Shown here: in pieces, positions 32,191 to 58,367 of the stretch
How positions within the stretch are numbered: position 1 is the stretch's first letter
Layout of the letters: each line of letters starts with the position of its first letter
NCBI RefSeq assembly: GCF_017348835.2
Contig: NZ_CP071375.1
Source: Escherichia coli
GTDB lineage: Bacteria; Pseudomonadota; Gammaproteobacteria; Enterobacterales; Enterobacteriaceae
Reading direction: 5' to 3' (one strand)
DNA length: 64,000 nt
Notes under the pieces: generated by a model
What the model saw: the letters and a program-made list of their open reading frames with translations, nothing else
What the model was told of the DNA's origin: nothing
Database searches by the model: none
Program-made: the position numbers and the translations under genes

Positions 32191-33616
32191 TAATGCCAGT
32201 CAGTTAAGCAACTGACTGGCTCTTTTTCGGGGCTGTGGGGTATTTCCAGGGCCTCTCCTTTACCACTCTCGGGAAGGCCCTTTCCCTTCTTGTCGGTAAT
32301 TTCACAAGTTGTCCCATACTTGCAAGATCGCGCATCAGCTCCGGTATACGTCCCGGTGAAGCGCCCTGCAATGTCATCAGCATTCTCATCACCATTCCGC
32401 ATGATTCTGAGAAGCTCAGTTGATTTGGCCAGTAACCTTTCAGATGTTCCGCCATTTTAATCATCTGATATCTCACCAGATTATAAGCCAGTAAGACACC
32501 CCACAGCTCTTGCTCCACAAGCTCAGGCTTTTTACTTCTCAGCGTCAGCCTGCTCAGTTGCATCGTCTGTTTTATCTCCCTGTATCCCAGTTCGATTTCC
32601 CAGCGATGACTGTACAGATCCGCCATTTCTCCTCCGGGGAAGCGCATGGCGTCCGTCATCGACGTCAGCAGATGGCAGACTTTTCCTTTGCGCGTCACGG
32701 TCAGCAGGCGGGCTGTCACCTCATTTCCCAGTCCCGGCCACTTTTTTCGTGCCTGCGGGCTGGTTTTCAGCTTCACCAGATGATCGCCTTTACCCAGTTT
32801 TCTGATCTCTTCATATTGCGCTCCCTTTCTGAGAGGGATCATCCAGTGGCGGTGTTCTCCCGCCAGGCTCCAGGCATTTAACAATCCCAGTGAGTAATAA
32901 CCTTTATCCATTAACGTCAGAGTGTTATCGCCGGTTTGTTCTATAAGTTGCTCAGCAAGCTCATTTTCGCTGTTCTTCATCGTGCCGAAGGCTGCAGCCG
33001 TCAGCAGATGGCTGGTCAGTTCCATCTGGCAGACCATTTTGACCTGCGGGTAGAGCGCCGGGGTCCCGGCATGTGTCTGGCGAGGGAAGGCTGCATCGTT
33101 CTCTGGTGTATCCGGTGTGCGCCAGAACACACCATCGATGGCCAGCAGGGTCAGGCCGCACCAGTGCGGATGCGGCGTGGCGTTATGCCAGAGCTGCGCT
33201 GTTTTCGTGAACACGCGGCGGACAGCCTCACTTCCCAGGCGCTGGCGGGCCTGAATAACAGCACTGGGGGCAACGAAGGTGCGATTGCCCGGCAGCATGA
33301 TGTCCAGGCGATTCACAATCTGGTGAAGAGGTTCTTTACGCTCAAGCGCCATGCCAACAATACACCAGACCATCATTTCGAGGGGAAGACGGCGCTTGCG
33401 TAGCGTTACAGTACCTGATTCGGCAAGGCAACGAGAGATGAGTTCGGGGTCGAGGTAATCTCCCAGAGAAGTCAGTGGGTTACGCAGAGAATCGTAACGG
33501 GATACCAGATCAAGAGCCTGTCCAATGTGCATAAAAAAATCCGGAAACGAGTGAGCGTTTCCGGATTCTTACACAGCCACTGGATCGGTCAACTGATCCT
33601 TAACTGATCGGCATTA
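32191..33616 (-). mobile_element. IS4-like insertion sequence, copy 1 (1426 bp)
   Basis: 18-bp imperfect terminal inverted repeats taatgccagtcagttaag / cttaactgatcggcatta; single 442-aa transposase; flanked by 12-bp direct repeats ctcaacgtgcgg (32179-32190 and 33617-33628). Confidence 0.9.
32204..33532 (-). CDS. IS4-family transposase (DDE)
   Basis: 442 aa [33 protein letters not shown]...; length and sequence consistent with IS4 transposase. Confidence 0.88.
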
Positions 33617-33795
33617 CTCAACGTGCGGGGGTTTTCTCTTTCCAGCAACCAATGCCACCAGGGATAAAGCCCCCGCAACATTGCGCCTCACCGGATAACG
33701 CCGGCTTGGTGTGGATACTACGTCTCAATTCATCTTCACTTCATCCCTGAAGTGTTTGCAATGAAGAGTACATTCCGGCTTTTCAACAGCTGTTG
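33617..33795 (-). repeat. LDR copy 2, distal part (ldr leader/promoter and rdl region) displaced by IS4
   Basis: Matches 31644-31825 of copy 1 then diverges. Confidence 0.8.
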
Positions 33796-33928
33796 CAGTG
33801 GTTTCGTGCAGGTTGTGGTACAGGCTCGCAATTCTGATTAACGACCTGTCCAGGTAGTATGAAGAAATACAATAAGCAGGAATTTATATTATCTCCCCCG
33901 ATTTCCGTCATCGGAGGAGATATAACTG

Positions 33929-35029
33929 TCAGGCAAATATCGTCATCAAATAGGCGGCAAACAGTGCCAGATGCGCTGCGCCATTGAGCACGTTAGTACG
34001 TCCGGTGGAGAAGGAGATATGGCACAGCACTAAAGAGGCCACCATCACCACCATTTCTGGCGCACCAAGTGCAAACTGCAATTCGTTACCCGTCATAAAG
34101 GCAATTAGCGTGACGACAGGTACGGTAAGCGAAATTGTTGCTAACACTGAACCAAAGAACAGATTCATCGCGCGCTGGACCTGGTTGTTCAACACTGCTT
34201 TTAATGCACCTAAACCTTCCGGCGACAGAATCAACAGTGCCACCAGGAAGCCAGTAAAGGCGACAGGGGCATTCATGCTGTCGAGCAAAGTCTCCAGCGG
34301 GCTGGCGTTCATTTTGGTGACTGCAATAACGGCAATCAGGTGGATAATCAACCAGATAGCATGCCACAGGCTGCTATGGGCAGATGGTTTACCGTGATGC
34401 GGGTCGTCATCATCACTGTCATCTTCGTGCTCGTAGACAAACAAACTTTGATGCGTTTTGGTCTGGATCAGCAAAAATACGCCATACATTGCCGCAGAAA
34501 TTAATGCTACCAGTAACGCCTGACCGGTTGAAAAATTCGCCGCAGGCAGAGCCATTGGAAATACCAGTACGATTATCGCCAGGGGGAACAGCGCAATTAA
34601 ATACTGCTTGATACCAAACAGATTCATATATTGGGTGGCAAACTTACGACCGCCCAACAATAATGAAAAGCCAACCAGCCCACCGGTAACAATCATAATG
34701 ATTGAATAGAGCGTATCACGCATTAGCGTTGGCGCGGCGTCGCCGGTTGCCATTAAAGCTGAAATCAAACTGACTTCAAGAATAACCACTGAAAGGCTAA
34801 GAATAAGCGAACCGTAAGGTTCTCCCAGGCGATGGGCTAATACGTCCGCATGACGGACAACACTAAAGGCGCTACTTAAAATACCAATAAGCGCAAGAAG
34901 ATTGATGGCAATGACCACTGGTAGTGTCTGGCTGCTTCCCCACAGGAACAGCACTACCAGCGCCAGAACCGGGAAAATAAGCGAAGTCTCCTTGTGGCGG
35001 GTTTTTACCGCCTCTTGAGCATTTGACAT
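33929..35029 (-). CDS. chaA: Na+(Ca2+)/H+ antiporter
   Basis: MSNAQEAVKTRHKETSLIFPVLALVVLFLWG... matches ChaA (366 aa); ORF track entry has 29-aa upstream extension. Confidence 0.93.
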   Translation of the reverse strand: MSNAQEAVKTRHKETSLIFPVLALVVLFLWGSSQTLPVVIAINLLALIGILSSAFSVVRHADVLAHRLGEPYGSLILSLSVVILEVSLISALMATGDAAPTLMRDTLYSIIMIVTGGLVGFSLLLGGRKFATQYMNLFGIKQYLIALFPLAIIVLVFPMALPAANFSTGQALLVALISAAMYGVFLLIQTKTHQSLFVYEHEDDSDDDDPHHGKPSAHSSLWHAIWLIIHLIAVIAVTKMNASPLETLLDSMNAPVAFTGFLVALLILSPEGLGALKAVLNNQVQRAMNLFFGSVLATISLTVPVVTLIAFMTGNELQFALGAPEMVVMVASLVLCHISFSTGRTNVLNGAAHLALFAAYLMTIFA

Positions 35030-35298
35030 TATGGTTATCCCTTTGCAGATGAATTTATCGAAAATGTAAAAAATAGGTAGGAAAAATAACAGAAAGTGTC
35101 TGGATATCGGTAACATTTTACGAATTTTTACCCCGCTGTCGATTTTTTACTCATTGGGACATAAAAATAAGTAATACGTTTAGACAATGTTTGTTTTAGC
35201 GTTTCTTAAGAACAGTCTGACATGAAAATTCTCATGTTTTGGCAAGAGTAGATATTGTTGACCACACTTAATGTTCAACTTTGTAAAAGGAGTCAACG

Positions 35299-35529
35299 AT
35301 GCCGTATAAAACGAAAAGCGATCTGCCGGAAAGCGTAAAGCACGTTCTACCGTCTCATGCCCAGGATATCTATAAAGAAGCGTTCAACAGCGCATGGGAT
35401 CAATATAAAGATAAAGAAGATCGGCGTGATGACGCCAGTCGCGAAGAAACCGCGCATAAAGTGGCCTGGGCTGCTGTGAAACATGAATATGCCAAAGGGG
35501 ATGATGATAAATGGCATAAAAAATCGTAA
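35299..35529 (+). CDS. chaB: cation transport regulator ChaB
   Basis: 76 aa MPYKTKSDLPESVKHVLPSHAQDIYKEAFN... matches ChaB. Confidence 0.92.
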   Translation: MPYKTKSDLPESVKHVLPSHAQDIYKEAFNSAWDQYKDKEDRRDDASREETAHKVAWAAVKHEYAKGDDDKWHKKS

Positions 35530-35686
35530 AACCGGTAGCTTAGTTAAAGCTATTCGTGCGGTGTTGCCTTGCAAGTGGTCCGTGGATTGCATATTGTCCC
35601 GTTAGTGGTTTCAAAATGAGCAGTAAAAATGTCCGGAAGACACCAAAAAGTTGTCGCAGGGAAGTATGCAGTGGCGGAGGTGTAAG

Positions 35687-36382
35687 GTGATAACGCGTGA
35701 TTTCTTGATGAATGCCGATTGTAAAACGGCATTTGGTGCCATTGAAGAATCACTCTTATGGTCAGCAGAACAACGGGCGGCTTCGCTGGCGGCGACGCTG
35801 GCTTGTCGACCTGATGAGGGACCAGTGTGGATCTTCGGTTATGGATCGTTGATGTGGAATCCGGCACTGGAGTTTACCGAATCGTGCACCGGTACACTGG
35901 TTGGATGGCATCGCGCGTTTTGCCTGCGCCTGACCGCCGGGCGCGGGACTGCGCACCAGCCGGGACGGATGCTTGCACTGAAAGAGGGCGGACGCACCAC
36001 AGGCGTCGCCTATCGACTGCCTGAAGAGACGCTGGAGCAGGAACTAACCCTGTTGTGGAAGCGAGAGATGATTACCGGCTGTTATCTGCCAACCTGGTGC
36101 CAGCTTGATCTTGATGATGGACGCACAGTAAACGCCATTGTGTTTATTATGGACCCGCGACATCCAGAATATGAATCTGACACTCGCGCTCAGGTCATAG
36201 CGCCGTTGATTGCGGCGGCGAGCGGTCCGCTGGGAACCAACGCACAATACCTGTTTTCACTGGAACAGGAGCTTATCAAACTGGGAATGCAGGACGATGG
36301 GCTGAATGATTTGCTGGTATCGGTAAAAAAACTGCTGGCGGAGAATTATCCGGATGGTGTGTTAAGGCCGGGATTCGCCTGA
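35687..36382 (+). CDS. chaC: glutathione-specific gamma-glutamylcyclotransferase
   Basis: Conserved ChaC sequence from VITRDFLMNADCKTAFG...; start uncertain (ORF track start 35651). Confidence 0.88.
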   Translation: MITRDFLMNADCKTAFGAIEESLLWSAEQRAASLAATLACRPDEGPVWIFGYGSLMWNPALEFTESCTGTLVGWHRAFCLRLTAGRGTAHQPGRMLALKEGGRTTGVAYRLPEETLEQELTLLWKREMITGCYLPTWCQLDLDDGRTVNAIVFIMDPRHPEYESDTRAQVIAPLIAAASGPLGTNAQYLFSLEQELIKLGMQDDGLNDLLVSVKKLLAENYPDGVLRPGFA

Positions 36383-36425
36383 GTAAACTTCCCTCATAGT
36401 GGGGCGTCAGACGCCCCCTCAAACA

Positions 36426-36779
36426 TTAAAATGTGAGCACTTTATCGGCTGACAGCGTCCATTGCGCCAGTTCCACAAGAGCACCGATTTCCACCCCATC
36501 AATAAGAGGAAGTGTGCTAATCCCGCGCCCGTCGGTACAGGTTTTGCACAATTTCACCGGTACATTCTGAGCGGTAAGGATCTCCAGCATTTGCTGAATG
36601 TTGTAGCCTTCCCCTGGTTTTTGCCCGCGCAACCCGGCTGTGACCGCATCAGACATCAGGAACAGACGCAGATCCAGATTGCTCTCCTGCTCTCGTAACG
36701 CAATGGCCAGCCGCAAGCTGTTAAACAAGGATTCGCTCCCGTAAGGTGCGCCATTGGCAACGATCACGATTTTTTGCAT
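36426..36779 (-). CDS. ychN: DsrE/DsrF-like protein YchN
   Basis: 117 aa MQKIVIVANGAPYGSESLFNSLRLAIAL... matches YchN. Confidence 0.9.
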   Translation of the reverse strand: MQKIVIVANGAPYGSESLFNSLRLAIALREQESNLDLRLFLMSDAVTAGLRGQKPGEGYNIQQMLEILTAQNVPVKLCKTCTDGRGISTLPLIDGVEIGALVELAQWTLSADKVLTF

Positions 36780-36796
36780 TATTTACTCCTGTATTC

Positions 36797-36900
<104 letters not shown>

Positions 36901-36901
36901 T

Positions 36902-38359
<1,458 letters not shown>

Positions 38360-39010
38360 TCAGAAAATGCGCTCCTGATGCACCCATACCGCTGCTTCCA
38401 CGCGAGACTTGAGCTTCATTTTCTTCAGCATGTGCTTGACGTGCACTTTTACTGTGCTTTCGGTGATGTCCAGGCGGCGGGCAATCATCTTGTTCGGCAA
38501 ACCCTGGGCAATCAGCTTGAGAATATCGCGCTCGCGTGGGGTTAACTGGTTAACATCGCGCTCAGTCGTGGCACGGTTAGCGCGCAAGCTGGCGGCCAGA
38601 ACAGGCGTTAATGCTTCGCTTAATACCATTTCGCCAGCAGCTGCCTGATGCAATGCTTTCAGCAGATCTTCCGGTTCCATATCTTTTAACAGATAGCCAT
38701 CCGCGCCGCGTTTCAGTGCGGTGACCACATCTTCTTCATGGTTAGAGACGCTGAATACCACAATGCGCCCTGAGAGAGACTTTTCGCGCAGTTTATCCAG
38801 CGTTTCCAGACCGTTCATGCCGGGCATATTGAGATCTAACAGGATCAGATCGGGATCAAGAGATTCCGCCAGTTCAATACCCTGTTCGCCATTACTCGCT
38901 TCGCCAACCACGGTGATATCTGGTGCCATACTGATAAGCTGTTTTACGCCAGTTCGCAACATCGGGTGATCGTCGATCAGCAGGATAGTAGCCGGTTCCT
39001 GATTACTCAT
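38360..39010 (-). CDS. narL: nitrate/nitrite response regulator
   Basis: [31 protein letters not shown]... matches NarL (216 aa); ORF track entry extends into narX. Confidence 0.95.
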
Positions 39011-40799
39011 GGGTATCTCCTTGGACGTCTGTGAAAGTTTTTTCGGGAATAAAGGTGACCACCACTTCGGTGCCACCTGATTCACGACGGCGGACGCGGC
39101 AATCGCCTCGTAAACTTTGCGCACGGTCGCGCATTATTATCATGCCGTAGTGATTGCTGCGGATGGCATTTTCAGGCACGCCGCAGCCGTTATCCTGGAC
39201 GGTCAATTTGACCTGATTATCGTTTTGCGCCACCGTCACCACGACCTCACTCGCTTGCGAATGTTTGAGGGCGTTACTTAATGCCTCACGGGCAATTTGC
39301 AACAAGTGGATTGCCTGATGCGAAGGCACCAGACGAGGCGGCAATTGATAATCCAGCTTCACCGGGAAGCCAAATTTGGCGCTGTACTCTTCGCAACTCG
39401 CCTCCAGCGCCGGACGTAATCCAGGCTCGGTGAGCTGCAAGCGGAATGTGGTGAGCAATTCACGCAACTGCGCCCAGGATGCATTCAGTTCGTTACGGAT
39501 CTGACTTAACAGTTCGCGGCTGCTTTCTGGCAGCGCATCGCCCTGCATCTGTAAACAACTCACCTGCATCTTCATGCAAGAGAGAGATTGGGCAATAGAA
39601 TCATGCAGTTCGCGCGCAATGGTGGCACGCTCTTCCATCACGATCAACTGTTGCTGACGTTCCTGATGCCGATCCAGCGCCAGCGTGGCGGTGAGTTGTT
39701 CAACCAGGGTATCCACCAGTTGTTGTTGATCATGGCTAAGATGACGCCCCTGCGGCAGGGTCGCCAGCAAAATACCGTACTGCGTATGAGAGTCAGCCAG
39801 CCGCCACTTCAGGGTCGTGCCGCGATCACCAACGGGTAATACGCCGCGCGGGCAGAGCTGGCAGCCTTTATCATCACAAGTCATATCTGGCTGGCAGGTA
39901 AACTCCTGATGATTCTCTTCATCATCAGTGTCATACACCCGCAGTTCGATATCACGTAGCAGGGTTAAATTCTGTAAGCCGTTGAGTACAGGTGACAGGC
40001 GTTCACACAGCGGGGCGCGGGAATGCAAACGGCGGTTAGCCTGCCATAAAAAAGAGAGGATCTGATTTTTATGCTCCAGCCCGGCGGTTTTCTCCTGAAC
40101 CCGCTGCTCAAGTACGGCATAACTTTCGGCCAGTTCTGCAGACATATTGTTCAATGCAGTTCCAAGCATCGCCATTTCGTTGCGCCCGCTGATGTTTGCG
40201 CGTTGGGTAAAATCGCGATGGCTGACGGCACTCGCCATTGCCAGCAGTTGCCGCCACGGTTGTAGCAGTCGCGCCCGCAACCAGATAATAGTGAACACCA
40301 GTAAAAGTGCCATAAATACCGCCATTACCCGATGGACCAGTACCACTGTCTCAATGCGCATTTCCGTGGTGCGGTCAAAACCAGATACCAGCTGATCAAG
40401 CCCGGCAACAAACTGGCTGACATCCGCTGACACCGTTTCTCGGTTTTGTGCACGCATCAGCGCAGGGATCAGTTCATTACGCCAGTAATCTTGTAAACCC
40501 TGTAATTGCGCCAGTTGTCCGTCTCGTTCTGCTGCTCGAGTCAACTCGGCGCTAAATGCCGTTTGTTCCATCTCTTTAATTAAGGGCTTGTCTTTCTCGC
40601 TTAATGGCACTGCTGCCAACAGACGGTAACTTTGCATGCGCAGCGATCCCGCTTTGTTGATCGCATGGGCACTGCCCTGAACGCCTTGCACCAGCCAGCC
40701 AGAAACCGCCATCCCTGCCAGTCCAATAGCAGTAGAAAGCAACACAATAAGCGCAACCTGATTAACCAGGGTGAGCGGAGAGAGACAACGTTTAAGCAT
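39003..40799 (-). CDS. narX: nitrate/nitrite sensor histidine kinase
   Basis: 598 aa; HAMP, H-box ([11 protein letters not shown]) and ATPase motifs; matches NarX. Confidence 0.95.
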
Positions 40800-40914
40800 G
40801 TAAACCTCTTCCTTCTGGCTTTAAATGAGCAATAACCTTAATGAATGTGACGATACATTCTGGAATGGCAGTATTCTCGGCTATTGGCTGAAGTATACCC
40901 ATACCCGGAAAGAG

Positions 40915-40921
40915 TTACTCC
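40915..40921 (+). promoter_or_regulatory. candidate NarL heptamer (TACTCCT) in narX-narK intergenic region
   Basis: Sequence tactcct fits TACYYMT consensus; position relative to narK promoter plausible but not established. Confidence 0.3.
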
Positions 40922-41064
40922 TTATTTGCCGTGTGGTTAGTCGCTTTACATCGGTAAGGGTAGGGATTCTACAGCACCGTGAAAAATCTCATAATTTTTA
41001 TGAAATCACTGTACTCACTATGGGTAGTGATAAATATCAATGATAGATAAAGTTATCTTATCGT

Positions 41065-41078
41065 TTGATTTACATCAA
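41065..41078 (+). promoter_or_regulatory. FNR binding site upstream of narK
   Basis: Perfect TTGAT-N4-ATCAA palindrome (ttgatttacatcaa) about 60 bp upstream of narK start. Confidence 0.8.
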
Positions 41079-41137
41079 ATTGCCTTTAGCTACAGACACT
41101 AAGGTGGCAGACATCGAAACGAGTATCAGAGGTGTCT

Positions 41138-42830: not shown

Positions 42831-42921
42831 TTCCCACGCTGTTTCAGAGCGTTACCTTGCCCTTAAACATTAGCAATGTCGATTTATCAGAGGGCCGACA
42901 GGCTCCCACAGGAGAAAACCG

Positions 42922-48907: not shown

Positions 48908-49584
48908 TGCAATTCCTGAATATGTTCTTCTTTGATATCTACCCGTACATAGCCGGGGCGGTCTTCCTGATTGGTAGCTGGCTGCGTTATGACTACGGGC
49001 AGTACACCTGGCGCGCGGCGTCCAGCCAGATGCTGGATCGCAAAGGGATGAACCTGGCGTCGAACCTGTTCCATATCGGTATTCTGGGGATTTTTGTCGG
49101 TCACTTCTTCGGTATGTTGACGCCGCACTGGATGTATGAAGCCTGGCTGCCGATTGAAGTGAAACAGAAAATGGCGATGTTTGCTGGTGGTGCCAGCGGC
49201 GTGCTGTGTCTGATTGGCGGCGTGCTATTGCTCAAACGCCGCCTGTATAGCCCGCGCGTGCGTGCAACCACTACCGGAGCGGATATCCTGATCCTGTCGC
49301 TGCTCGTTATCCAGTGCGCGCTGGGCCTGCTGACCATTCCATTCTCCGCTCAGCATATGGACGGTAGCGAGATGATGAAACTGGTTGGCTGGGCGCAGTC
49401 GGTGGTGACCTTCCACGGTGGCGCTTCTCAACACCTCGATGGTGTGGCGTTTATCTTCCGTCTGCACCTGGTGCTGGGGATGACGTTATTCCTGCTGTTC
49501 CCATTCTCGCGTCTGGTACACATCTGGAGCGTACCGGTGGAGTATCTGACACGTAAGTACCAGCTGGTGCGCGCTCGTCACTAA
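48907..49584 (+). CDS. narI: nitrate reductase A gamma subunit (cytochrome b)
   Basis: 225 aa membrane protein; matches NarI. Confidence 0.95.
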
Positions 49585-49605
49585 GCGAATTTTAGTTCAC
49601 ATAGA

Positions 49606-49628
49606 CCCTGCTTCGGCGGGGTTTTTTT
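49606..49628 (+). terminator. rho-independent terminator after narI
   Basis: ccctgcttcggcgggg hairpin followed by ttttttt. Confidence 0.7.
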
Positions 49629-49644
49629 ATGGGCACGGTGCGGG

Positions 49645-49705
49645 GTGAGTTGTCGGATGCGCTTCGCTTATCCGACCTACAGGGGAGGATATTGTAGGTC
49701 CGGTA
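49645..49705. repeat. REP/BIME-like palindromic element
   Basis: gtcggatgcgcttcgcttatccgacctaca ... tgtaggtccgg resembles REP palindromic units. Confidence 0.5.
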
Positions 49706-49766
49706 AACGTGGTGCCATCGGGCAAAATTAGCTCGGAGTAACAGGTTTTGATTATTTCAGGAAGCG

Positions 49767-49945
49767 ATGGTGGTGGGGGAAGGATTACTCAGCGCTGCGC
49801 GCTTCGCCCTTCGGGTCGTTGCCTGCGGCAACGCTCTCTCGCTGGCGCTCGAGTCGAACCTTGGTCGAAGCTTCTCGTCCTTCCCCGCTTGGGCAGAATA
49901 TTAATTTACGGATTCGCTTGAGAGTTCAGGTACTTTTGAAAGTGA
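49767..49945 (-). repeat. tyrT-distal repeat unit (about 179 bp) carrying a copy of the tRNA-Tyr 3' end
   Basis: tggtggtgggggaaggatt at 49767 repeats the tRNA 3' end found at 49946; spacing 179 bp; corresponds to the repeat family downstream of tyrT (rtT/tpr region). Confidence 0.6.
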
Positions 49946-50030
<85 letters not shown>

Positions 50031-50064
50031 AGGGGTAATTCAAATTTCGAGGTAATGCTTGAGA

Positions 50065-50149
<85 letters not shown>

Positions 50150-50192
50150 ACGGGGTAATGCTTTTTACTGGCCTGCTCCCTTATCGGGAAGC

Positions 50193-50235
50193 GGGGCGCA
50201 TCATATCAAATGACGCGCCGCTGTAAAGTGTTACG
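50193..50235 (-). promoter_or_regulatory. tyrT promoter (-35 TTTACA, -10 TATGAT, GC-rich discriminator)
   Basis: Minus strand reads TTTACAgcggcgcgtcatttgaTATGATgcgccccgcttccc with 16-bp spacer, about 41 nt upstream of mature tRNA 5' end. Confidence 0.8.
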
Positions 50236-50308
50236 TTGAGAAAAATGAACTGGTTGCGTAATTTTCATCCGTAACGGATTAAAGGTAACCAGTTATTTTT
50301 GCTGGCGA

Positions 50309-51151
50309 TTAAAGAATAATCGTCCGATTACCGTAAACAAAGACGCGCTGCGCCAGTACTTTGTAGAGCGCGCGACTTAAGACGTTTTTCTCGACGTCAC
50401 GACCTGCGCGCATCATATCTTCAGCTGTGTAGGTATGATCGACATGAATAACGTCCTGCATGATGATTGGGCCTTCGTCCAGATTGTCATTCACATAGTG
50501 AGCGGTTGCGCCAATAATCTTCACGCCACGTTCATAGGCCTGGTGATAAGGACGTGCGCCGATAAACGCTGGCAGGAAGGAATGGTGAATATTGATGATC
50601 TTATTCGGGAAGCGTGACACAAATTCCGGTGTTAATACCCGCATATACTTCGCCAGCACCACGTAGTCAGGTTGATAAGCATCAATGGCATCCGCCATCT
50701 TTTGATCGTGCTCGTTGCGGCTTAACCCTTCATGGCTTACCAGCTCAAACGGAATATTAAAACGCTCAACCAGAGAACGCAAAGTATCGTGGTTACCAAT
50801 AACTGCCGCGATTTCGACATCCAGGCCGCCGTAATTGGCTTTCATCAACAAATCGCCAAGGCAATGAGCCTCTTTAGTGACCAGAATCACTATCCGGCGA
50901 CGACCGGCAGGATTCAGCTCACGCACGGAGCCTTCTGGCAATGCGCTATCGAGATCCGCCAGCAGGGTGGAATCATTAAAAATCCCTTCCAGTTCCGTGC
51001 GCATAAAAAAGCGCCCGGTACGGTGATCAACAAATTCATTGTTCTGTACGATATTTAACTCGTGCTTGTAGCAAATATTGGTAATACGTGCGATCAGACC
51101 TTTTTGGTCCGGACAAATAGTACGCAGAACTTTACGTTGGAGTGAATGCAT
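50309..51151 (-). CDS. purU: formyltetrahydrofolate deformylase
   Basis: 280 aa MHSLQRKVLRTICPDQKGLIARITNICYKHELNIV...; matches PurU. Confidence 0.95.
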   Translation of the reverse strand: MHSLQRKVLRTICPDQKGLIARITNICYKHELNIVQNNEFVDHRTGRFFMRTELEGIFNDSTLLADLDSALPEGSVRELNPAGRRRIVILVTKEAHCLGDLLMKANYGGLDVEIAAVIGNHDTLRSLVERFNIPFELVSHEGLSRNEHDQKMADAIDAYQPDYVVLAKYMRVLTPEFVSRFPNKIINIHHSFLPAFIGARPYHQAYERGVKIIGATAHYVNDNLDEGPIIMQDVIHVDHTYTAEDMMRAGRDVEKNVLSRALYKVLAQRVFVYGNRTIIL

Positions 51152-51200
51152 TGCTGGAAAAACCTTGTTGAGAGTGTTTGCTAAACCGTACCGTCAACCA

Positions 51201-51659
51201 TTATTGGCCGCAGCACTTTTTAAATTTTTTACCTGAACCACAAGGGCAGGGATCGTTGCGGCCAAACTGCGGACGTGTACCGTCAATATAGTACCATTGA
51301 CCGTTTTCTTTCAAAAATCGCGAACGTTCAATTATTGCACCTGTTTTGCCACCTTCGGTAAATCGCGCAACAAAACTAACAAATCCGATATTGTCGGCGT
51401 CCTGCCAACAATGTTCAAATACGGTCAATCCCAACCATTCAGTATGCGCAAATCCGGCAATCAATTCGGCACGTAACGCCGCTGCTCCACAAGATGGATG
51501 CCAGGTCTTTATTAAATAATCTGCGTCTTGCATCACAAAAGCGCAGTAACGCGAACGCATGAGATGTTCTGGATCAGGTGCAACCTTTTCACCAGACACA
51601 TAAGGGTGGCAACATAGGCTATACTCGACAGCACTACCACAGGGACAAAGCTGAGACAC
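51201..51659 (-). CDS. ychJ: SEC-C motif protein YchJ
   Basis: Conserved YchJ sequence from [19 protein letters not shown]...; C-terminal [14 protein letters not shown]; start inferred (GTG) within ORF track entry. Confidence 0.85.
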
Positions 51660-51771
51660 AAATAATCTCCCTGGAAACAATAACGGCGTATTAACCGCCT
51701 GAGTAGCACTATGTTAACCGAGCAGTAGCGATGTGGCTACGATTGCATTCCAGGGGAATCTTGCGGGAATA

Positions 51772-52677
51772 ATGAGAAAGATAAAAATAGGGCTGGCGCT
51801 GGGATCTGGCGCGGCGAGAGGTTGGTCGCATATTGGCGTTATTAATGCGCTAAAAAAAGTGGGTATTGAAATTGATATCGTTGCAGGATGTTCAATTGGT
51901 TCGCTGGTGGGCGCGGCCTATGCATGCGATCGATTATCTGCGCTGGAAGATTGGGTAACCTCTTTCAGTTATTGGGATGTTTTACGCCTGATGGATCTCT
52001 CCTGGCAGCGCGGTGGGTTACTGCGCGGCGAGCGTGTCTTCAATCAATACCGCGAAATAATGCCGGAAACAGAGATCGAAAATTGTTCCCGTCGCTTCGC
52101 GGCTGTTGCCACCAATTTAAGTACGGGGCGTGAATTATGGTTTACTGAAGGCGATCTCCATCTTGCTATTCGCGCATCATGCAGTATTCCAGGACTCATG
52201 GCACCCGTTGCGCATAACGGCTACTGGCTGGTTGATGGGGCAGTCGTTAACCCAATTCCTATTTCGCTCACGCGTGCATTGGGTGCTGATATTGTGATAG
52301 CGGTCGACCTGCAGCACGATGCTCATTTGATGCAACAAGATTTGCTCTCCTTTAATGTCAGTGAAGAAAATAGCGAGAATGGTGATTCTCTGCCGTGGCA
52401 TGCGCGTCTGAAAGAAAGGTTAGGCAGCATAACGACACGTCGGGCGGTGACAGCACCAACGGCAACAGAGATTATGACCACTTCTATCCAGGTGCTGGAG
52501 AACCGCCTTAAAAGGAACCGCATGGCAGGTGATCCGCCCGATATTCTGATTCAACCTGTTTGCCCGCAAATATCTACGCTTGATTTCCATCGCGCGCACG
52601 CTGCCATTGCGGCCGGACAGCTGGCAGTGGAAAAGAAAATGGACGAACTTTTGCCGTTGGTACGCACCAACATTTGA
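51772..52677 (+). CDS. rssA: patatin-like phospholipase RssA
   Basis: MRKIKIGLALGSGAARGWSHIGVINALKK... with GxSxG (GCSIGS); ORF track start 51733 is an extension. Confidence 0.9.
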   Translation: MRKIKIGLALGSGAARGWSHIGVINALKKVGIEIDIVAGCSIGSLVGAAYACDRLSALEDWVTSFSYWDVLRLMDLSWQRGGLLRGERVFNQYREIMPETEIENCSRRFAAVATNLSTGRELWFTEGDLHLAIRASCSIPGLMAPVAHNGYWLVDGAVVNPIPISLTRALGADIVIAVDLQHDAHLMQQDLLSFNVSEENSENGDSLPWHARLKERLGSITTRRAVTAPTATEIMTTSIQVLENRLKRNRMAGDPPDILIQPVCPQISTLDFHRAHAAIAAGQLAVEKKMDELLPLVRTNI

Positions 52678-52768
52678 CCAGAATTTTTATCTACACTTAA
52701 GTTAATTCTGACAGGCGCAGGTGGCAATAGCATGCCACTATTGAGTAAAGCCAGTCAGGGGAGAGAAC

Positions 52769-53782
52769 ATGACGCAGCCATTGGTCGGAAAACAGATTCT
52801 CATTGTTGAAGATGAGCAGGTATTTCGCTCGCTTCTGGATTCGTGGTTTTCCTCATTGGGAGCGACAACGGTACTGGCGGCTGATGGGGTGGATGCCCTT
52901 GAGTTGCTGGGAGGTTTCACTCCAGACCTGATGATATGTGATATCGCGATGCCACGAATGAACGGGCTTAAACTGCTGGAACATATACGCAACAGAGGTG
53001 ATCAGACACCGGTTCTGGTGATATCTGCCACCGAAAATATGGCAGATATTGCCAAAGCGTTACGTCTGGGCGTTGAAGATGTTTTGCTGAAACCAGTTAA
53101 AGATCTGAATCGCTTGCGCGAGATGGTTTTTGCCTGTCTCTATCCCAGCATGTTTAATTCGCGCGTTGAGGAAGAGGAAAGGCTTTTTCGCGACTGGGAT
53201 GCAATGGTTGATAACCCTGCCGCAGCGGCGAAATTATTACAGGAACTACAACCGCCGGTTCAGCAGGTGATTTCCCATTGCCGGGTTAATTACCGTCAAT
53301 TGGTTGCCGCGGACAAACCCGGCCTGGTGCTTGATATTGCCGCACTTTCGGAAAACGATCTGGCATTTTATTGCCTTGATGTAACCCGAGCTGGACATAA
53401 TGGCGTACTTGCTGCCTTGTTATTACGCGCATTGTTTAACGGATTATTACAGGAACAGCTTGCACACCAAAATCAACGGTTGCCAGAGTTGGGCGCGTTA
53501 TTGAAGCAGGTAAACCATTTACTCCGTCAGGCCAATCTGCCGGGGCAGTTTCCGCTATTAGTTGGCTATTATCATCGCGAACTGAAAAATCTCATTCTGG
53601 TTTCTGCGGGTCTGAATGCGACGTTAAATACCGGCGAACACCAGGTGCAAATCAGTAATGGTGTTCCGTTAGGCACTTTAGGTAACGCTTATTTGAATCA
53701 ATTGAGCCAGCGATGCGATGCCTGGCAATGCCAAATATGGGGAACCGGTGGTCGACTGCGCTTGATGTTGTCTGCAGAATGA
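52769..53782 (+). CDS. rssB: RpoS-degradation adaptor response regulator
   Basis: 337 aa; receiver domain (ILIVEDEQ...DIAMPRMNG) plus PP2C-like domain; matches RssB. Confidence 0.95.
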   Translation: MTQPLVGKQILIVEDEQVFRSLLDSWFSSLGATTVLAADGVDALELLGGFTPDLMICDIAMPRMNGLKLLEHIRNRGDQTPVLVISATENMADIAKALRLGVEDVLLKPVKDLNRLREMVFACLYPSMFNSRVEEEERLFRDWDAMVDNPAAAAKLLQELQPPVQQVISHCRVNYRQLVAADKPGLVLDIAALSENDLAFYCLDVTRAGHNGVLAALLLRALFNGLLQEQLAHQNQRLPELGALLKQVNHLLRQANLPGQFPLLVGYYHRELKNLILVSAGLNATLNTGEHQVQISNGVPLGTLGNAYLNQLSQRCDAWQCQIWGTGGRLRLMLSAE

Positions 53783-53983
53783 GCAAACGATAACGCGGGC
53801 TAAATTTGCATTACCTGCTAATGTCGGCTGGTGGTACTATCGTCGCCATTCGTATAAGTAATTGTCTTAATTATGCTAACTCGCCTCCTTTTCAGAACTT
53901 AGCCCCTTCGGGGTGCTGATATACTGGGATGCGATACAGAAATATGAACACGTTCAAAACACGAACAGTCCAGGAGAATTTAA

Positions 53984-54892
53984 ATGGCTGCCATTAATAC
54001 GAAAGTCAAAAAAGCCGTTATCCCCGTTGCGGGATTAGGAACCAGGATGTTGCCGGCGACGAAAGCCATCCCGAAAGAGATGCTGCCACTTGTCGATAAG
54101 CCATTAATTCAATACGTCGTGAATGAATGTATTGCGGCTGGCATTACTGAAATTGTGCTGGTTACACACTCATCTAAAAACTCTATTGAAAACCACTTTG
54201 ATACCAGTTTTGAACTGGAAGCAATGCTGGAAAAACGTGTAAAACGTCAACTGCTTGATGAAGTGCAGTCTATTTGTCCGCCGCACGTAACTATTATGCA
54301 AGTTCGTCAGGGGCTGGCGAAAGGCCTGGGACACGCGGTATTGTGTGCTCACCCGGTAGTGGGTGATGAACCTGTGGCTGTTATTTTGCCTGACGTTATT
54401 CTGGATGAATATGAATCCGATTTGTCACAGGATAACCTGGCAGAGATGATCCGCCGCTTTGATGAAACGGGTCATAGCCAGATCATGGTTGAACCGGTTG
54501 CTGATGTGACCGCATATGGCGTTGTGGATTGCAAAGGCGTTGAATTAGCGCCGGGTGAAAGCGTACCGATGGTTGGCGTGGTTGAAAAACCAAAAGCGGA
54601 TGTTGCGCCGTCTAATCTCGCTATTGTGGGTCGTTACGTACTTAGCGCGGATATTTGGCCGTTGCTGGCAAAAACCCCTCCGGGAGCTGGTGATGAAATT
54701 CAGCTCACCGACGCAATTGATATGCTGATCGAAAAAGAAACGGTTGAAGCCTATCATATGAAAGGGAAGAGCCATGACTGCGGTAATAAATTAGGTTACA
54801 TGCAGGCCTTCGTTGAATACGGTATTCGTCATAACACCCTTGGCACGGAATTTAAAGCCTGGCTTGAAGAAGAGATGGGCATTAAGAAGTAA
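53984..54892 (+). CDS. galU: UTP-glucose-1-phosphate uridylyltransferase
   Basis: 302 aa [35 protein letters not shown]...; matches GalU. Confidence 0.96.
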
Positions 54893-54916
54893 CATCCGTA
54901 TCGGTGTTATCCACGA

Positions 54917-54947
54917 AACGGCGTTGAGCAATCGACGCCGTTTTTTT
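54917..54947 (+). terminator. rho-independent terminator after galU
   Basis: aaacggcgttgagcaatcgacgccgttttttt. Confidence 0.7.
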
Positions 54948-54984
54948 ATAGCTTATTCTTATTAAATTGTCTTAAACCGGACAA

Positions 54985-55012
54985 TAAAAAATCCCGCCGA
55001 TGGCGGGATTTT
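54985..55012 (-). terminator. rho-independent terminator after hns (potentially bidirectional)
   Basis: aaaaaatcccgccgatggcgggatttta: GC hairpin with A-run on one side and T-run on the other. Confidence 0.7.
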
Positions 55013-55035
55013 AAGCAAGTGCAATCTACAAAAGA

Positions 55036-55449
55036 TTATTGCTTGATCAGGAAATCGTCGAGGGATTTACCTTGCTCATCCATTGCTTTTTTGATTACAG
55101 CTGGAGTACGGCCCTGGCCAGTCCAGGTTTTAGTTTCGCCGTTTTCGTCAACGTAGCTATATTTTGCCGGACGCTGAGCACGTTTAGCTTTGGTGCCAGA
55201 TTTAACGGCGGCAAGGCTATTCAGCAGCTCGTTCGGGTCAATACCGTCAGCGATCAGCATTTCGCGATATTGCTGCAGTTTACGAGTGCGCTCTTCAACT
55301 TCAGCAGCAGCCGCGCTTTCTTCTTCGCGACGTTCGTTAACAACAACTTCTAATTTTTCCAGCATTTCTTCCAGCGTTTCAAGTGTACATTCTCTTGCCT
55401 GCGCACGAAGAGTACGGATGTTGTTCAGAATTTTAAGTGCTTCGCTCAT
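55036..55449 (-). CDS. hns: nucleoid-associated protein H-NS
   Basis: 137 aa [41 protein letters not shown]...; matches H-NS. Confidence 0.97.
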
Positions 55450-56052
55450 TGTAGTAATCTCAAACTTATATTGGGGTGGTTTGTTGAGGTAATAATAGAG
55501 CCTTAAATTCAGTTGTGCAATAGCCAGGAATGTAAGGAATTCAAAATTGTTCTTTATTTTGTGCCGCCAATAAATATCTTTTCATAAAATTAGCCAGAAA
55601 AGACGCGGCATATAGCCCTATTTGTACCGATGATTTCGCAGCACGTGAGGTTAAAACTTCCTGATTCATGTCACATTTTATGGGGAGATTATCGTAGGCT
55701 GACGACCTTTCAGTCTTCTGTATTAGTCGTGTTTACGAGAATTCCCTATTAAGCGAATGATGAAAAGTAGAACAGTCGCAATAAGAGCAGGGACTTAGTA
55801 TTGCACTATCTCCTGGAGGTCAACAGAGGGCTATTACTTGCGCAACAGGTTAAAGATTGTGAATAGTTACCAGCAGTCATTTACCCGCTTATAACAAGCG
55901 AGGCAGTTGTAATGATAGCTCAGAAGGATTATGCAAGGCTTCGTAAGGGAGAACGCATATACCACTTCTGTGCATACTGTTGAGCTGAAAAACTGACGAA
56001 TTATGATAAACTCCAGCCAACTTTATTTCATATCATTGAGGGCCTGTGGCTG

Positions 56053-56670
56053 ATGGCACAGCTATATTTCTACTATTCCGCAATGAATGCGGGTAAGTCT
56101 ACAGCATTGTTGCAATCTTCATACAATTACCAGGAACGCGGCATGCGCACTGTCGTATATACGGCAGAAATTGATGATCGCTTTGGTGCCGGGAAAGTCA
56201 GTTCGCGTATAGGTTTGTCATCGCCTGCAAAATTATTTAACCAAAATTCATCATTATTTGATGAGATTCGTGCGGAACATGAACAGCAGGCAATTCATTG
56301 CGTACTGGTTGATGAATGCCAGTTTTTAACCAGACAACAAGTATATGAATTATCGGAGGTTGTCGATCAACTCGATATACCCGTACTTTGTTATGGTTTA
56401 CGTACCGATTTTCGAGGTGAATTATTTATTGGCAGCCAATACTTACTGGCATGGTCCGACAAACTGGTTGAATTAAAAACCATCTGTTTTTGTGGCCGTA
56501 AAGCAAGCATGGTGCTGCGTCTTGATCAAGCAGGCAGACCTTATAACGAAGGTGAGCAGGTGGTTATTGGTGGTAATGAACGATACGTTTCTGTATGCCG
56601 TAAACACTATAAAGAGGCGTTACAAGTCGGCTCATTAACGGCTATTCAGGAAAGGCATCGCCACGACTAA
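56053..56670 (+). CDS. tdk: thymidine kinase
   Basis: 205 aa [30 protein letters not shown]...; matches Tdk. Confidence 0.95.
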
Positions 56671-56684
56671 TAAGAATTTCTTTA

Positions 56685-56727
56685 CTGACAGGGTGAGCAG
56701 GGCACTTTTATCCTGTCAGTTCGTTTT
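56685..56727 (+). terminator. candidate terminator after tdk
   Basis: Inverted repeat ctgacagg ... cctgtcag with 19-nt loop followed by ttcgtttt. Confidence 0.4.
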
Positions 56728-56941
56728 ACGCACTTCTTCCGGGCTATACACCCTTCTCGGCAGTTTTTTAACGCCGCTATACGCCTCACAGGGCTCTTAA
56801 GCACCGACGTTGACTTGTGACCTGTAAAGTACAGTATCCTGTGTTTAGGCGTTATACATCGTCGCAAATATGATGAAGGCTAATGCTGTCGGTTTATGGA
56901 AAAGTTGCTTTGGGTAAACAAAAAAACGGCCCCAGAAGGGG

Positions 56942-58367
56942 TAATGCCAGTCAGTTAAGCAACTGACTGGCTCTTTTTCGGGGCTGTGGGGTATTTCCAG
57001 GGCCTCTCCTTTACCACTCTCGGGAAGGCCCTTTCCCTTCTTGTCGGTAATTTCACAAGTTGTCCCATACTTGCAAGATCGCGCATCAGCTCCGGTATAC
57101 GTCCCGGTGAAGCGCCCTGCAATGTCATCAGCATTCTCATCACCATTCCGCATGATTCTGAGAAGCTCAGTTGATTTGGCCAGTAACCTTTCAGATGTTC
57201 CGCCATTTTAATCATCTGATATCTCACCAGATTATAAGCCAGTAAGACACCCCACAGCTCTTGCTCCACAAGCTCAGGCTTTTTACTTCTCAGCGTCAGC
57301 CTGCTCAGTTGCATCGTCTGTTTTATCTCCCTGTATCCCAGTTCGATTTCCCAGCGATGACTGTACAGATCCGCCATTTCTCCTCCGGGGAAGCGCATGG
57401 CGTCCGTCATCGACGTCAGCAGATGGCAGACTTTTCCTTTGCGCGTCACGGTCAGCAGGCGGGCTGTCACCTCATTTCCCAGTCCCGGCCACTTTTTTCG
57501 TGCCTGCGGGCTGGTTTTCAGCTTCACCAGATGATCGCCTTTACCCAGTTTTCTGATCTCTTCATATTGCGCTCCCTTTCTGAGAGGGATCATCCAGTGG
57601 CGGTGTTCTCCCGCCAGGCTCCAGGCATTTAACAATCCCAGTGAGTAATAACCTTTATCCATTAACGTCAGAGTGTTATCGCCGGTTTGTTCTATAAGTT
57701 GCTCAGCAAGCTCATTTTCGCTGTTCTTCATCGTGCCGAAGGCTGCAGCCGTCAGCAGATGGCTGGTCAGTTCCATCTGGCAGACCATTTTGACCTGCGG
57801 GTAGAGCGCCGGGGTCCCGGCATGTGTCTGGCGAGGGAAGGCTGCATCGTTCTCTGGTGTATCCGGTGTGCGCCAGAACACACCATCGATGGCCAGCAGG
57901 GTCAGGCCGCACCAGTGCGGATGCGGCGTGGCGTTATGCCAGAGCTGCGCTGTTTTCGTGAACACGCGGCGGACAGCCTCACTTCCCAGGCGCTGGCGGG
58001 CCTGAATAACAGCACTGGGGGCAACGAAGGTGCGATTGCCCGGCAGCATGATGTCCAGGCGATTCACAATCTGGTGAAGAGGTTCTTTACGCTCAAGCGC
58101 CATGCCAACAATACACCAGACCATCATTTCGAGGGGAAGACGGCGCTTGCGTAGCGTTACAGTACCTGATTCGGCAAGGCAACGAGAGATGAGTTCGGGG
58201 TCGAGGTAATCTCCCAGAGAAGTCAGTGGGTTACGCAGAGAATCGTAACGGGATACCAGATCAAGAGCCTGTCCAATGTGCATAAAAAAATCCGGAAACG
58301 AGTGAGCGTTTCCGGATTCTTACACAGCCACTGGATCGGTCAACTGATCCTTAACTGATCGGCATTA
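56942..58367 (-). mobile_element. IS4-like insertion sequence, copy 2 (1426 bp)
   Basis: Same terminal repeats and identical transposase ORF as copy 1; flanked by 12-bp direct repeats ccccagaagggg (56930-56941 and 58368-58379). Confidence 0.9.
56955..58283 (-). CDS. IS4-family transposase (DDE)
   Basis: 442 aa, identical in the ORF track to the 32204-33532 protein. Confidence 0.88.

Follow-up and report, generated by a model that had tools for sequence, protein, structure and literature searches.

Two directly oriented IS4 copies around the chaA to tdk core block of Escherichia coli PE164

Two direct copies of an insertion sequence are a substrate for RecA-dependent deletion or duplication. 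In mutation-accumulation lines of E. coli, deletions between direct IS copies occurred at 4.5e-5 per genome per generation, transposition was biased to proximal sites and excision was rare; a pair of IS5A copies about 35 kb apart gave repeated deletion of 30 host genes (PMC5009759). In the K-12 lines of that work IS4 seldom transposed and no IS4-IS4 deletion was found, K-12 being single-copy for IS4 (PMC5009759). Of 110 large rearrangements recorded in the long-term evolution experiment, the majority involved IS elements (PMC4173774).

Here we describe a pair of IS4 copies in a 64,000-nt stretch of the chromosome of E. coli PE164, a pig aEPEC/ExPEC strain; this stretch is referred to as the window. 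As in the experiments with IS1, IS5, IS2 and IS150, two direct homologous copies lie around chromosomal genes, at a distance for which deletions are documented. The differences are that PE164 shows the substrate without the product, that neither PMC5009759 nor PMC4173774 reports an event of this kind for IS4, the element concerned, and that the enclosed block is conserved core (hns, galU, rssB) and not a prophage or a dispensable operon. The IS4 pair around these core genes is a real but routine situation, already annotated, with no sign of recombination between the copies.

The element itself closely resembles the IS4 of K-12 (insG). Both are 1,426 bp long, with inverted repeats matching at 16 of 18 positions, a single 442-residue transposase (Nterm_IS4 and DDE_Tnp_1 domains, YREK motif) and target duplications of 11–14 bp. 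They differ at about 15 nt, in copy number (one in K-12, about six in PE164) and in their insertion sites.

The IS4 copies and the block between them

A repeat search of the window gave an exact repeat of 1,429 nt with an offset of 24,751 (32189–33617 and 56940–58368), for which a chance origin is impossible. Trimmed to the IS4 ends TAATGCC...GGCATTA, it leaves two copies of 1,426 bp each, and the outer limits given in a preliminary description of this DNA (32191 and 58367) are exact. The features are as follows.

31384–32190: LDR array left of copy 1, consisting of unit A and the left part of unit B
31443–31550, minus strand, and 31599–31664, plus strand: ldr and rdl of LDR unit A (Ldr annotation, Rfam)
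31979–32086, minus strand: ldr of LDR unit B, an annotated Ldr toxin
32134–32194, plus strand: second rdl antitoxin RNA gene, cut at 32190/32191 by copy 1 inside the terminator stem
32179–32190: left target duplication of copy 1, CTCAACGTGCGG, 12 bp
32191–33616, minus strand: IS4 copy 1, 1,426 bp, inserted between kdsA and chaA in the second unit of the LDR (ldr/rdl) array; annotated 'IS4-like element IS4 family transposase' in RefSeq
32191–32208: terminal inverted repeat of copy 1 distal to the transposase start, TAATGCCAGTCAGTTAAG
32204–33532, minus strand: transposase ORF of copy 1, 442 aa (ORF, NCBIfam, Pfam, YREK motif)
33599–33616: terminal inverted repeat of copy 1 proximal to the transposase start, from comparison of the ends
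33617–33628: right target duplication of copy 1, CTCAACGTGCGG, 12 bp
33617–56941: block between the copies, 23,325 bp (RefSeq annotation, Rfam), containing the rest of LDR unit B, chaA, chaB, chaC, ychN, ychO, narL, narX, narK, narGHJI, RtT, two tRNA-Tyr genes of tyrT/tyrV type, purU, ychJ, rssA, rssB, galU, hns and tdk
56930–56941: left target duplication of copy 2, CCCCAGAAGGGG, 12 bp
56942–58367, minus strand: IS4 copy 2, 1,426 bp, in the tdk/adhE intergenic terminator hairpin
56955–58283, minus strand: transposase ORF of copy 2, 442 aa
58368–58379: right target duplication of copy 2, CCCCAGAAGGGG, 12 bp

Judged by their sequence, both elements are classical E. coli IS4 (IS4 family, IS4 subgroup). 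They are 98.9% identical over the full 1–1426 to the insG-annotated IS4 of the K-12 derivatives DH1, BW25113 and BL21, and in ISfinder elements with about 95% nucleotide identity or more are treated as the same IS. An IS4 is expected to measure about 1.4 kb, with imperfect inverted repeats of about 18 bp at its ends and a target duplication near one helical turn (about 10–13 bp), and the window copies agree with this at 1,426 bp and 12 bp; the inverted repeats compared are TAATGCCAGTCAGTTAAG and TAATGCCGATCAGTTAAG. The transposase scores 305 bits against the NCBIfam IS4 transposase model NF033592 (cut-off 115) and matches the Pfam domains DDE_Tnp_1 (1.9e-31) and Nterm_IS4 (1.6e-32). It carries at residue 307 the Y(2)R(3)E(6)K signature by which the IS4 family is defined (PMC2266710). 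Copy 1 also has a promoter-like sequence, TTGACC-16-AAGAAT, on the minus strand at 33592–33565.

The preliminary description had called the two copies identical, with identical transposase genes on the same strand, and had proposed their alignment as a check. In the window this is so: the copies align at 100% identity over 1,426 bp, and the two ORFs, both on the minus strand, have equal translations. The RefSeq record NZ_CP114128.1 (assembly GCF_021390295.2), also of PE164, qualifies it. This version retains both copies, each already annotated as IS4. Over the 64,000 positions it has 4 differences from the window, and three (window positions 32851, 33466 and 57711) fall within the IS4 copies; at least three of four random differences would land there with a probability of 3.4e-4. 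In RefSeq the copies are therefore 3 nt apart, and the transposase of copy 1 has the changes L23M and R228S. The identity is at least 99.8% in either version, and since most of the version differences sit in the IS4 copies, exact identity is a statement at the level of assembly and polishing. The PE164 genome was assembled by Unicycler from Illumina data (PMC12233904).

The PE164 chromosome has about six IS4 copies, a count that the same description had advised, and three of them are identical to one another, which suggests that they may have been active recently. Both ORFs are intact in the window.

The block was described as running from chaA to tdk. Its 23,325 bp are indeed core genes, the RtT and both tRNA-Tyr genes being matched by Rfam as well, but copy 1 does not adjoin chaA, its place being an rdl terminator within the LDR array. 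The gene order of the block is unchanged in strains RM8082, SW07164, SCPM-O-B-9504 and F2_81, and of 5,426 complete genomes 5,422 contain rssB-galU-hns. Loss of the block would probably be pleiotropic, an inference which fits that distribution.

Insertion sites and target duplications

Each copy has its own matched pair of 12-bp duplications, as had been noted; the two pairs differ from each other, and the flanks outside them are unrelated (21–32% identity). Neither copy has exchanged flanks, because the duplications remain matched, and the gene order is as in other E. coli, in agreement with the claim that the copies have not yet recombined. Each site is moreover occupied alone in other strains. 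These observations support a separate insertion of each copy, as had been proposed; the target was in each case a terminator-like hairpin.

Copy 1 lies in a tandem Ldr/Rdl type I toxin-antitoxin array. Such an array was recognised by a 35-aa Ldr ORF, a cis-encoded rdl antisense RNA and tandem units of roughly 530 bp, and here there are two annotated Ldr toxins, two rdlD matches in Rfam and a period of 536 nt, the direct repeats being 98% identical. A more distant repeat relates 31644–31902 to 33617–33875 (85% identity). The insertion point of copy 1 lies 104 nt before the start codon of the second ldr. It cuts off the 3' end of the second rdl gene, which scores 55.1 bits against Rfam RF01813 (rdlD), compared with 83.6 bits for the intact rdl at 31599–31664. 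The rdl::IS4 junction is found in only three of 5,426 complete genomes. The other two, RM8082 and SW07164, share the position, duplication and orientation of PE164, and their IS4 differs from the PE164 copy by about 1%. The recurrence in three lineages about 1% apart could be due partly to descent or recombination as opposed to three independent hits.

Copy 2 lies 271 nt after the tdk stop codon and 41 nt after the adhE stop codon, at the top of the bidirectional terminator that the two genes share. Across E. coli this hairpin is found in four states: empty, with an intact IS4, with an old deleted IS4, and with an unrelated IS4-family remnant. The exact empty site, AAAAAAACGGCCCCAGAAGGGGCCGTTTATG, is present in O55:H7 genomes, whose flanks are 99.3–99.8% identical to the window. 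IS4-type elements occupy the site in more than 1,100 genomes. One of these, a B2-lineage copy, has the same left junction, an internal deletion of 270 nt and 97.7% identity, so that occupation of the site goes back a long time. Strain F2_81 has the PE164 insertion at adhE base for base, and has no IS4 on the rdl side; its block differs from that of PE164 by 2 mismatches in 22,742 nt.

RM8082 and SW07164 have no IS4 proper at adhE and carry a different element there, annotated as an IS4-family pseudogene and called insZ in K-12. It occupies the same hairpin in the same orientation, 1 bp from the IS4 insertion point, with 97% identity to the IS4 end across the terminal 34 nt. It differs in being 989 nt long and frameshifted, with 31% amino acid identity to the IS4 transposase over residues 23–243, and as a recombination partner for IS4 it has hardly any homology.

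From eleven distinct IS4 sites a consensus was obtained, AAAA-CGS-[11-14 bp duplicated]-SCG-TTT, the duplication being 12 bp at both window copies and 11–14 bp at the nine others. On average 7.7 of 13 positions in these sites obey dyad symmetry. Random positions give 3.25 +/- 1.6, and in 20,000 resamples a mean as high as that of the IS4 sites never occurred. Because the eleven sites share one consensus they are hot spots; the rdl site is the least canonical, with the right arm alone fitting. The bamD terminator carries IS4 in one orientation in one strain and in the other orientation in a second, both times with an identical 14-bp duplication, proof that sites are re-used independently. This recalls IS186 (GGGG(N6/N7)CCCC; PMC5009759), which also strongly prefers a short dyad-symmetric target, with recurrent hits at one nucleotide, and the palindromic target preference of REP-targeting IS elements (PMC1525189). 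Compared with IS186, the IS4 consensus resembles intrinsic terminators, and the transposase family and duplication length differ.

Origin of the pair

On the basis of these observations, it is very probable that these are two of the roughly six IS4 copies in PE164, each placed by its own transposition, which happen to form direct repeats around a core block. The DDE transposase of IS4 would have made a staggered cut in the target, repaired into a 12-bp duplication. Copy 1 would have entered the 3' arm of the second rdl terminator, between kdsA and chaA, and copy 2 the top of the bidirectional tdk/adhE terminator, both sites being of the type that IS4 appears to prefer, a palindromic hairpin resembling a terminator, with an A-run on one side and a T-run on the other. 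The adhE-side copy would have been in place before PE164 and F2_81 diverged. For the copy at rdl there are two possibilities: either it arrived later, perhaps by a local hop from its neighbour 23 kb away, or F2_81 has lost it along with one of its LDR units.

It is improbable, though more credible than the other alternatives, that both copies are old orthologous residents, inherited or imported with their flanks, and that their identity comes from gene conversion among the IS4 copies of the genome, or from short-read polishing in which repeat copies are averaged, and not from recent transposition. The frequent occupation of the adhE site, the diverged B2 copy with its shared left junction and the rdl insertion common to three lineages are what this explanation leads one to expect. 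The same is true of the concentration of the version differences inside the IS4 copies, as within-repeat bases are unstable between versions of this Illumina-based Unicycler assembly (PMC12233904). It fits poorly, however, with the precisely empty adhE site between the nearly identical flanks of O55:H7, or with F2_81, where a nearly identical block has no rdl copy. The rdl elements of RM8082 and SW07164, too, are about 1% away from that of PE164, while three PE164 copies are identical, and the two orientations at the bamD hairpin also argue against it.

An assembly artefact, in which one or both copies were misplaced when repeats were bridged, is very unlikely. The genome is a short-read Unicycler assembly (PMC12233904) and its two versions disagree inside the repeats; nevertheless, both copies are retained in RefSeq, there are clean 12-bp duplications at both junctions of each, F2_81, an independent assembly, has the adhE insertion without a single base changed, and the same rdl insertion occurs in RM8082 and SW07164.

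Least likely of all, and rejected here as it was in the preliminary description, is that the whole 26.2-kb IS4-block-IS4 unit is a composite transposon, now or on its arrival. Direct IS copies expose one left and one right end to the outside, as in Tn9, so mobilisation of such a unit is mechanistically possible in principle, and as in the Tn9 type (IS1) two identical direct copies flank a segment; but the outer flanks, CTCAACGTGCGG on the left and CCCCAGAAGGGG on the right, share no duplication, each IS4 having its own matched 12-bp pair, and the cargo is native syntenic core whose order and position do not vary among the strains inspected, whether or not they have IS4, with rssB-galU-hns near-universal as noted above and no second location known. 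The 'plasmid' records that contain rssB-galU-hns are all large non-mobilizable replicons, and the one inspected has long stretches syntenic with the chromosome.

Consequences for the block and for IS4

The two copies chance to share one orientation, and so constitute direct repeats of 1.4 kb with 23.3 kb of core genes between them. Near-identical direct repeats of well over 200 bp on one replicon are what unequal exchange requires, and here they are 1,426 bp long, on the same strand, 23.3 kb apart, and 100% (window) or 99.8% (RefSeq) identical. By textbook inference, the chaA-tdk pair would be a substrate for RecA-dependent deletion or amplification: unequal exchange could delete the block, leaving one hybrid IS4, or duplicate it in tandem. 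Deletion would remove hns, galU, rssB, narXL/narGHJI and two tRNA-Tyr genes, and would therefore probably be selected against. Neither the predicted deletion junction kdsA/ldr-IS4-adhE nor the predicted duplication junction tdk-IS4-chaA occurs in any of 5,426 complete genomes, a search that is nearly powerless, because rdl::IS4 is present in three genomes only and is combined with an intact adhE IS4 in PE164 alone.

We also consider, as an unlikely possibility, that IS4 specifically seeks palindromes resembling intrinsic terminators (A-run, GC hairpin, T-run), inserts at the hairpin top in either orientation and replaces the terminator it destroys, so that core sites recur. One IS4 end has an inward-facing terminator-like hairpin (32195–32220 in copy 1; 11 pairs, then TCTTTTTC), overlapping the distal inverted repeat, and there is possibly a second at the other end. 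If this were true, copy 1 would turn rdl into a chimeric rdl-IS4 RNA ending about 30–40 nt inside IS4, and read-through from adhE would be stopped again at the IS4 hairpin that lies shortly before the transposase start. Suitable terminators being few and fixed, rdl, adhE and bamD would thus be hit repeatedly in unrelated lineages, and core segments bracketed by IS4, such as chaA-tdk, would be a recurrent and predictable polymorphism and not a one-off.

Structure and identity of the IS4 pair

By repeat search and direct comparison, a stretch of 1,429 nt recurs in the window without a mismatch, 24,751 nt further on. When trimmed to the ends TAATGCC...GGCATTA, it corresponds to two copies of IS4:

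32191-33616, IS4 copy 1, 1,426 bp
56942-58367, IS4 copy 2, 1,426 bp

The trimmed ends match exactly the outer coordinates 32191-58367 proposed in the preliminary description. Between the copies lie 23,325 bp, which brings the complete unit of IS4, intervening block and IS4 to 26,177 bp. Both elements have a single ORF of 442 aa on the minus strand, with no difference between the two in the window sequence. Copy 1 is bordered on left and right by CTCAACGTGCGG and copy 2 by CCCCAGAAGGGG, so that each has its own target duplication (TSD), as had been described; the flanks beyond both TSDs are unrelated sequence. According to the RefSeq annotation, the block contains chaA, chaB, chaC, ychN, ychO, narL, narX, narK, narGHJI, RtT, two tRNA-Tyr genes, purU, ychJ, rssA, rssB, galU, hns and tdk, and the gene list given previously is correct. 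An origin as a composite transposon is excluded: the outer duplication is not shared, the cargo is native syntenic core, and there is no copy of it elsewhere.

By every sequence feature tested, the element is IS4. Full-length identity to the insG IS4 of K-12 derivatives is 98.9%, and the two terminal inverted repeats agree in 16 of their 18 positions. The transposase scores 305 bits against NCBIfam NF033592 (cut-off 115), contains the Pfam domains Nterm_IS4 and DDE_Tnp_1, and has at residue 307 the Y(2)R(3)E(6)K signature, which is a hallmark of the family (PMC2266710). RefSeq labels both elements "IS4-like element IS4 family transposase". There are six IS4 places in strain PE164, from which the window comes, and three of them were located (rdl, adhE and bamD-raiA). 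Among the 5,426 complete E. coli genomes surveyed, about half have at least one IS4 (median 1, maximum 32). The element is thus known and already annotated, and the type of arrangement is also known; there is no evidence of actual rearrangement.

The porcine strain PE164, serotype O108:H9, is an aEPEC/ExPEC hybrid whose genome was assembled with Unicycler; the paper describing the strain makes no mention of IS elements (PMC12233904). The window was compared with the other version of the PE164 chromosome, RefSeq record NZ_CP114128.1 (2216843-2280842). Four positions differ in 64 kb, namely 9920, 32851, 33466 and 57711. The first lies in dhaM, which has Q23 and is intact in the window, as against an internal stop and a pseudogene in NZ_CP114128.1. 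The other three fall within the two IS4 copies, which make up 4.5% of the window (P = 3.4e-4 for at least three of four random differences landing there). This clustering points to repeat-related uncertainty, arising in assembly or polishing. The previous statement that the two copies are identical therefore holds for the window sequence but not for the RefSeq record, in which they are 3 nt apart and the copy 1 transposase carries L23M and R228S. In whichever version, the copies are at least 99.8% identical, and their value as a recombination substrate is unaffected by the disagreement. Base calls within IS elements in hybrid assemblies should not be over-interpreted. Misassembly of the copies themselves is unlikely, all four junctions being clean and each insertion being present in independent assemblies.

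Two further regions of the window may be mentioned here:

17013-18226, IS3-family element with programmed frameshift, between ycgV and ychF; it contains an Rfam ALIL pseudoknot at 17294-17410 (120 bits)
1-6205, adjoining treA: TonB-dependent receptor, ModD, SAM-dependent methyltransferase and FecCD-type iron ABC transporter

Judged by K-12 gene order, the latter cluster looks like an accessory island for iron uptake and not like K-12-type core.

Insertion sites and target preference

Copy 1 lies in the interval between kdsA and chaA, inside an array of long direct repeats (LDRs) encoding ldr toxins and rdl antitoxin RNAs:

31384-32190 and 33617-33880, ldr/rdl type I toxin-antitoxin array, 536-nt period, two Ldr toxins
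31599-31664, intact rdlD-type antitoxin RNA (Rfam, 83.6 bits)
32134-32194, second rdlD-type RNA, running into the IS4 end (Rfam, 55.1 bits)

The pair had been said to bracket chaA to tdk. This is right for the contents of the block, but copy 1 is within the array and does not adjoin chaA. Its location and the version-dependent identity of the copies are the only corrections; the IS4 pair is otherwise confirmed and the earlier reading supported. IS4 entered at 32190/32191, within the 3' arm of the terminator stem of the second rdl; the start codon of the second ldr is 104 nt downstream of this point. No ldr promoter came out of a simple promoter scan.

Copy 2 lies in the tdk/adhE intergenic region, 41 nt past the adhE stop codon, where it occupies the top of the hairpin AAAAAAACGG-CCCCAGAAGGGG-CCGTTT. 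Four states of this hairpin were seen across E. coli:

Precisely empty, as in O55:H7
Intact IS4, estimated from match rankings at roughly 40 to 125 genomes
Older IS4 (97.7% identity) that has lost 270 nt internally, as in ATCC 25922
Remnant, 989 nt long, of another IS4-family element, in RM8082 (27248-28236 of the extracted locus) and at the equivalent site of SW07164

Intact and internally deleted IS4 together occupy the site in 1,132 genomes. The 989-nt remnant, which we take to be the K-12 pseudogene insZ, is inserted 1 bp from the IS4 insertion point in the same hairpin. It has 31% amino acid identity to the IS4 transposase, and shares with IS4 only the terminal 34 nt of one end, which are 97% identical.

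The third located copy of PE164, between bamD and raiA, is identical to the window IS4 and is likewise at the top of a hairpin, AAAACGG-CAGCCCTTGAGCTG-CCGTTTTTTT, with a 14-bp duplication. In strain 2021CK-00607 the same terminator hairpin carries IS4 with the same 14-bp duplication but in the opposite orientation (PE164 3001-4426 and 2021CK-00607 301-1726 of the extracted loci), and this is clearly one target that has been re-used independently.

Eleven distinct IS4 target sites were reconstructed from thirteen insertions in ten genomes. They are strongly dyad-symmetric, with a mean of 7.7 of 13 symmetric positions complementary, compared to 3.25 +/- 1.6 for positions drawn at random from the window; the observed mean was not attained in any of 20,000 resamples. 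The consensus consists of AAAA-C-G-S, a duplicated core of 11-14 bp, and S-C-G-TTT. It agrees with the AAA-N20-TTT rule which was reportedly formulated in work of the 1980s, when IS4 is said to have been found in galT and in the pheST attenuator. As the comparison shows, IS4 in E. coli returns to a limited number of terminator hairpins. Because such hairpins are re-used, a common IS4 site is poor evidence of shared descent.

The ends of the element have hairpins of their own. The end facing rdl and tdk has an 11-pair hairpin followed, reading inward, by TCTTTTTC, while the opposite end has a promoter-like TTGACC-16-AAGAAT:

32195-32220 and 56946-56971, terminator-like hairpin that faces inward, in or beside one of the terminal repeats
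about 33530-33565 and 58281-58316, minus strand, 12-pair hairpin and T-run after the promoter-like sequence and directly before the transposase ATG, identified by eye

The 12-pair hairpin is missing from the automated scan, probably an effect of greedy stem extension, which would have consumed the T-run. It may be that IS4 terminates transcripts coming in from the genes whose terminators it has split. The end hairpins could in this way shield the element from outside transcription and also replace the split terminators.

History of the two insertions

F2_81, a pig isolate from Australia, is nearly identical to PE164 in the block, with 2 mismatches over the 22,742 nt compared. It has an identical IS4 at adhE, and the adhE copy is therefore older than the split between PE164 and F2_81. 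In the ldr/rdl region it has a single LDR unit, with no IS4. The presence of the adhE copy alone in F2_81, together with the separate TSD of each copy, bears out the earlier view that the two are separate insertions.

The rdl copy would have been either gained after the split, or lost from F2_81 through recombination between LDR units. PE164 exceeds F2_81 by one LDR unit of 536 nt and by the 1,438 nt of IS4 and its duplication, and both histories fit. If the rdl copy came later, a local hop from the copy 23 kb away is plausible, because a bias of IS transposition toward proximal sites has been reported (PMC5009759). The copies are separate insertions under either history.

IS4 is found at the identical rdl nucleotide with the same TSD in only three of the 5,426 genomes: PE164, RM8082 and SW07164. 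Their blocks are ~1% divergent, and their rdl-site IS4 alleles are also ~1% apart. This recurrence counts, alongside the bamD hairpin, as visible re-use of a target. It could be argued that the two window copies are orthologous insertions of old date which gene conversion or polishing has made alike. We regard this as improbable, and if true it would leave the structural conclusion unchanged.

These relatives also vary within the block. The tyrT-type locus differs in copy number, with two tRNA-Tyr and one RtT in PE164 (window 49768-50149), three and two in RM8082 (19775-20454 of the extracted locus), and two and three in strain SCPM-O-B-9504 (10614-11349 of the extracted locus). Two block genes are annotated as pseudogenes: narG of F2_81, which has an internal stop (15041-18784 of the extracted locus), and narK of RM8082, which is frameshifted (11024-12414 of the extracted locus).

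Recombination between the copies

Exchange between direct IS copies would delete the interval and leave a single hybrid IS. Deletions by direct-IS recombination in E. coli have been put at ~4.5e-5 events per genome per generation overall, and the documented cases include an IS5 pair ~35 kb apart (PMC5009759). In the long-term evolution experiment, IS elements were involved in most large rearrangements (PMC4173774). Since such events are documented, the deletion mechanism suggested in the preliminary description is a textbook one.

Two synthetic junctions were searched for in the 5,426 complete genomes. The deletion junction (IS4 joined to 600 nt of the left flank of copy 1 and 600 nt of the right flank of copy 2) was found in one place in none of them, and the same was true of the tandem-duplication junction tdk-IS4-chaA. 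The substrate pair is unique to PE164, and this absence therefore says little about the rate. SCPM-O-B-9504 has a second, independent direct IS4 pair around chaA-tdk, consisting of an IS4 at adhE and an IS4 nested in IS150 within the LDR array (28667-31476 of the extracted locus), and it too is unrecombined.

The genes rssB-galU-hns are kept in 5,422 of the 5,426 genomes, in agreement with deletion being disfavoured. No block gene is known to be essential in K-12, so that a strain with the block deleted would probably be viable but sick.

Transfer of the block to plasmids by IS4 was considered and rejected: all 20 PLSDB records with rssB-galU-hns are typed as non-mobilizable. The records range from ~34 kb to chromosome size, and the one inspected contains ~40 kb of syntenic chromosome. 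In p1RM9154-C1 (NZ_CP031350.1, 187 kb, from an O145 strain), labelled as a circular plasmid, core chromosome in syntenic order extends over more than 40 kb, from ldr and chaA by way of hns, adhE, opp and tonB as far as ompW, with a phage integrase at the end. It is either a mis-binned piece of chromosome or a large excised segment.

The pair is of little importance outside PE164. Within this strain, the 23-kb segment, with hns, galU, rssB, the nitrate respiration genes and two tRNA-Tyr genes, may be lost or amplified at the low frequency usual for IS-flanked DNA, and this would become relevant if PE164 is passaged or if colony variants (mucoid, rough or RpoS-altered) arise.
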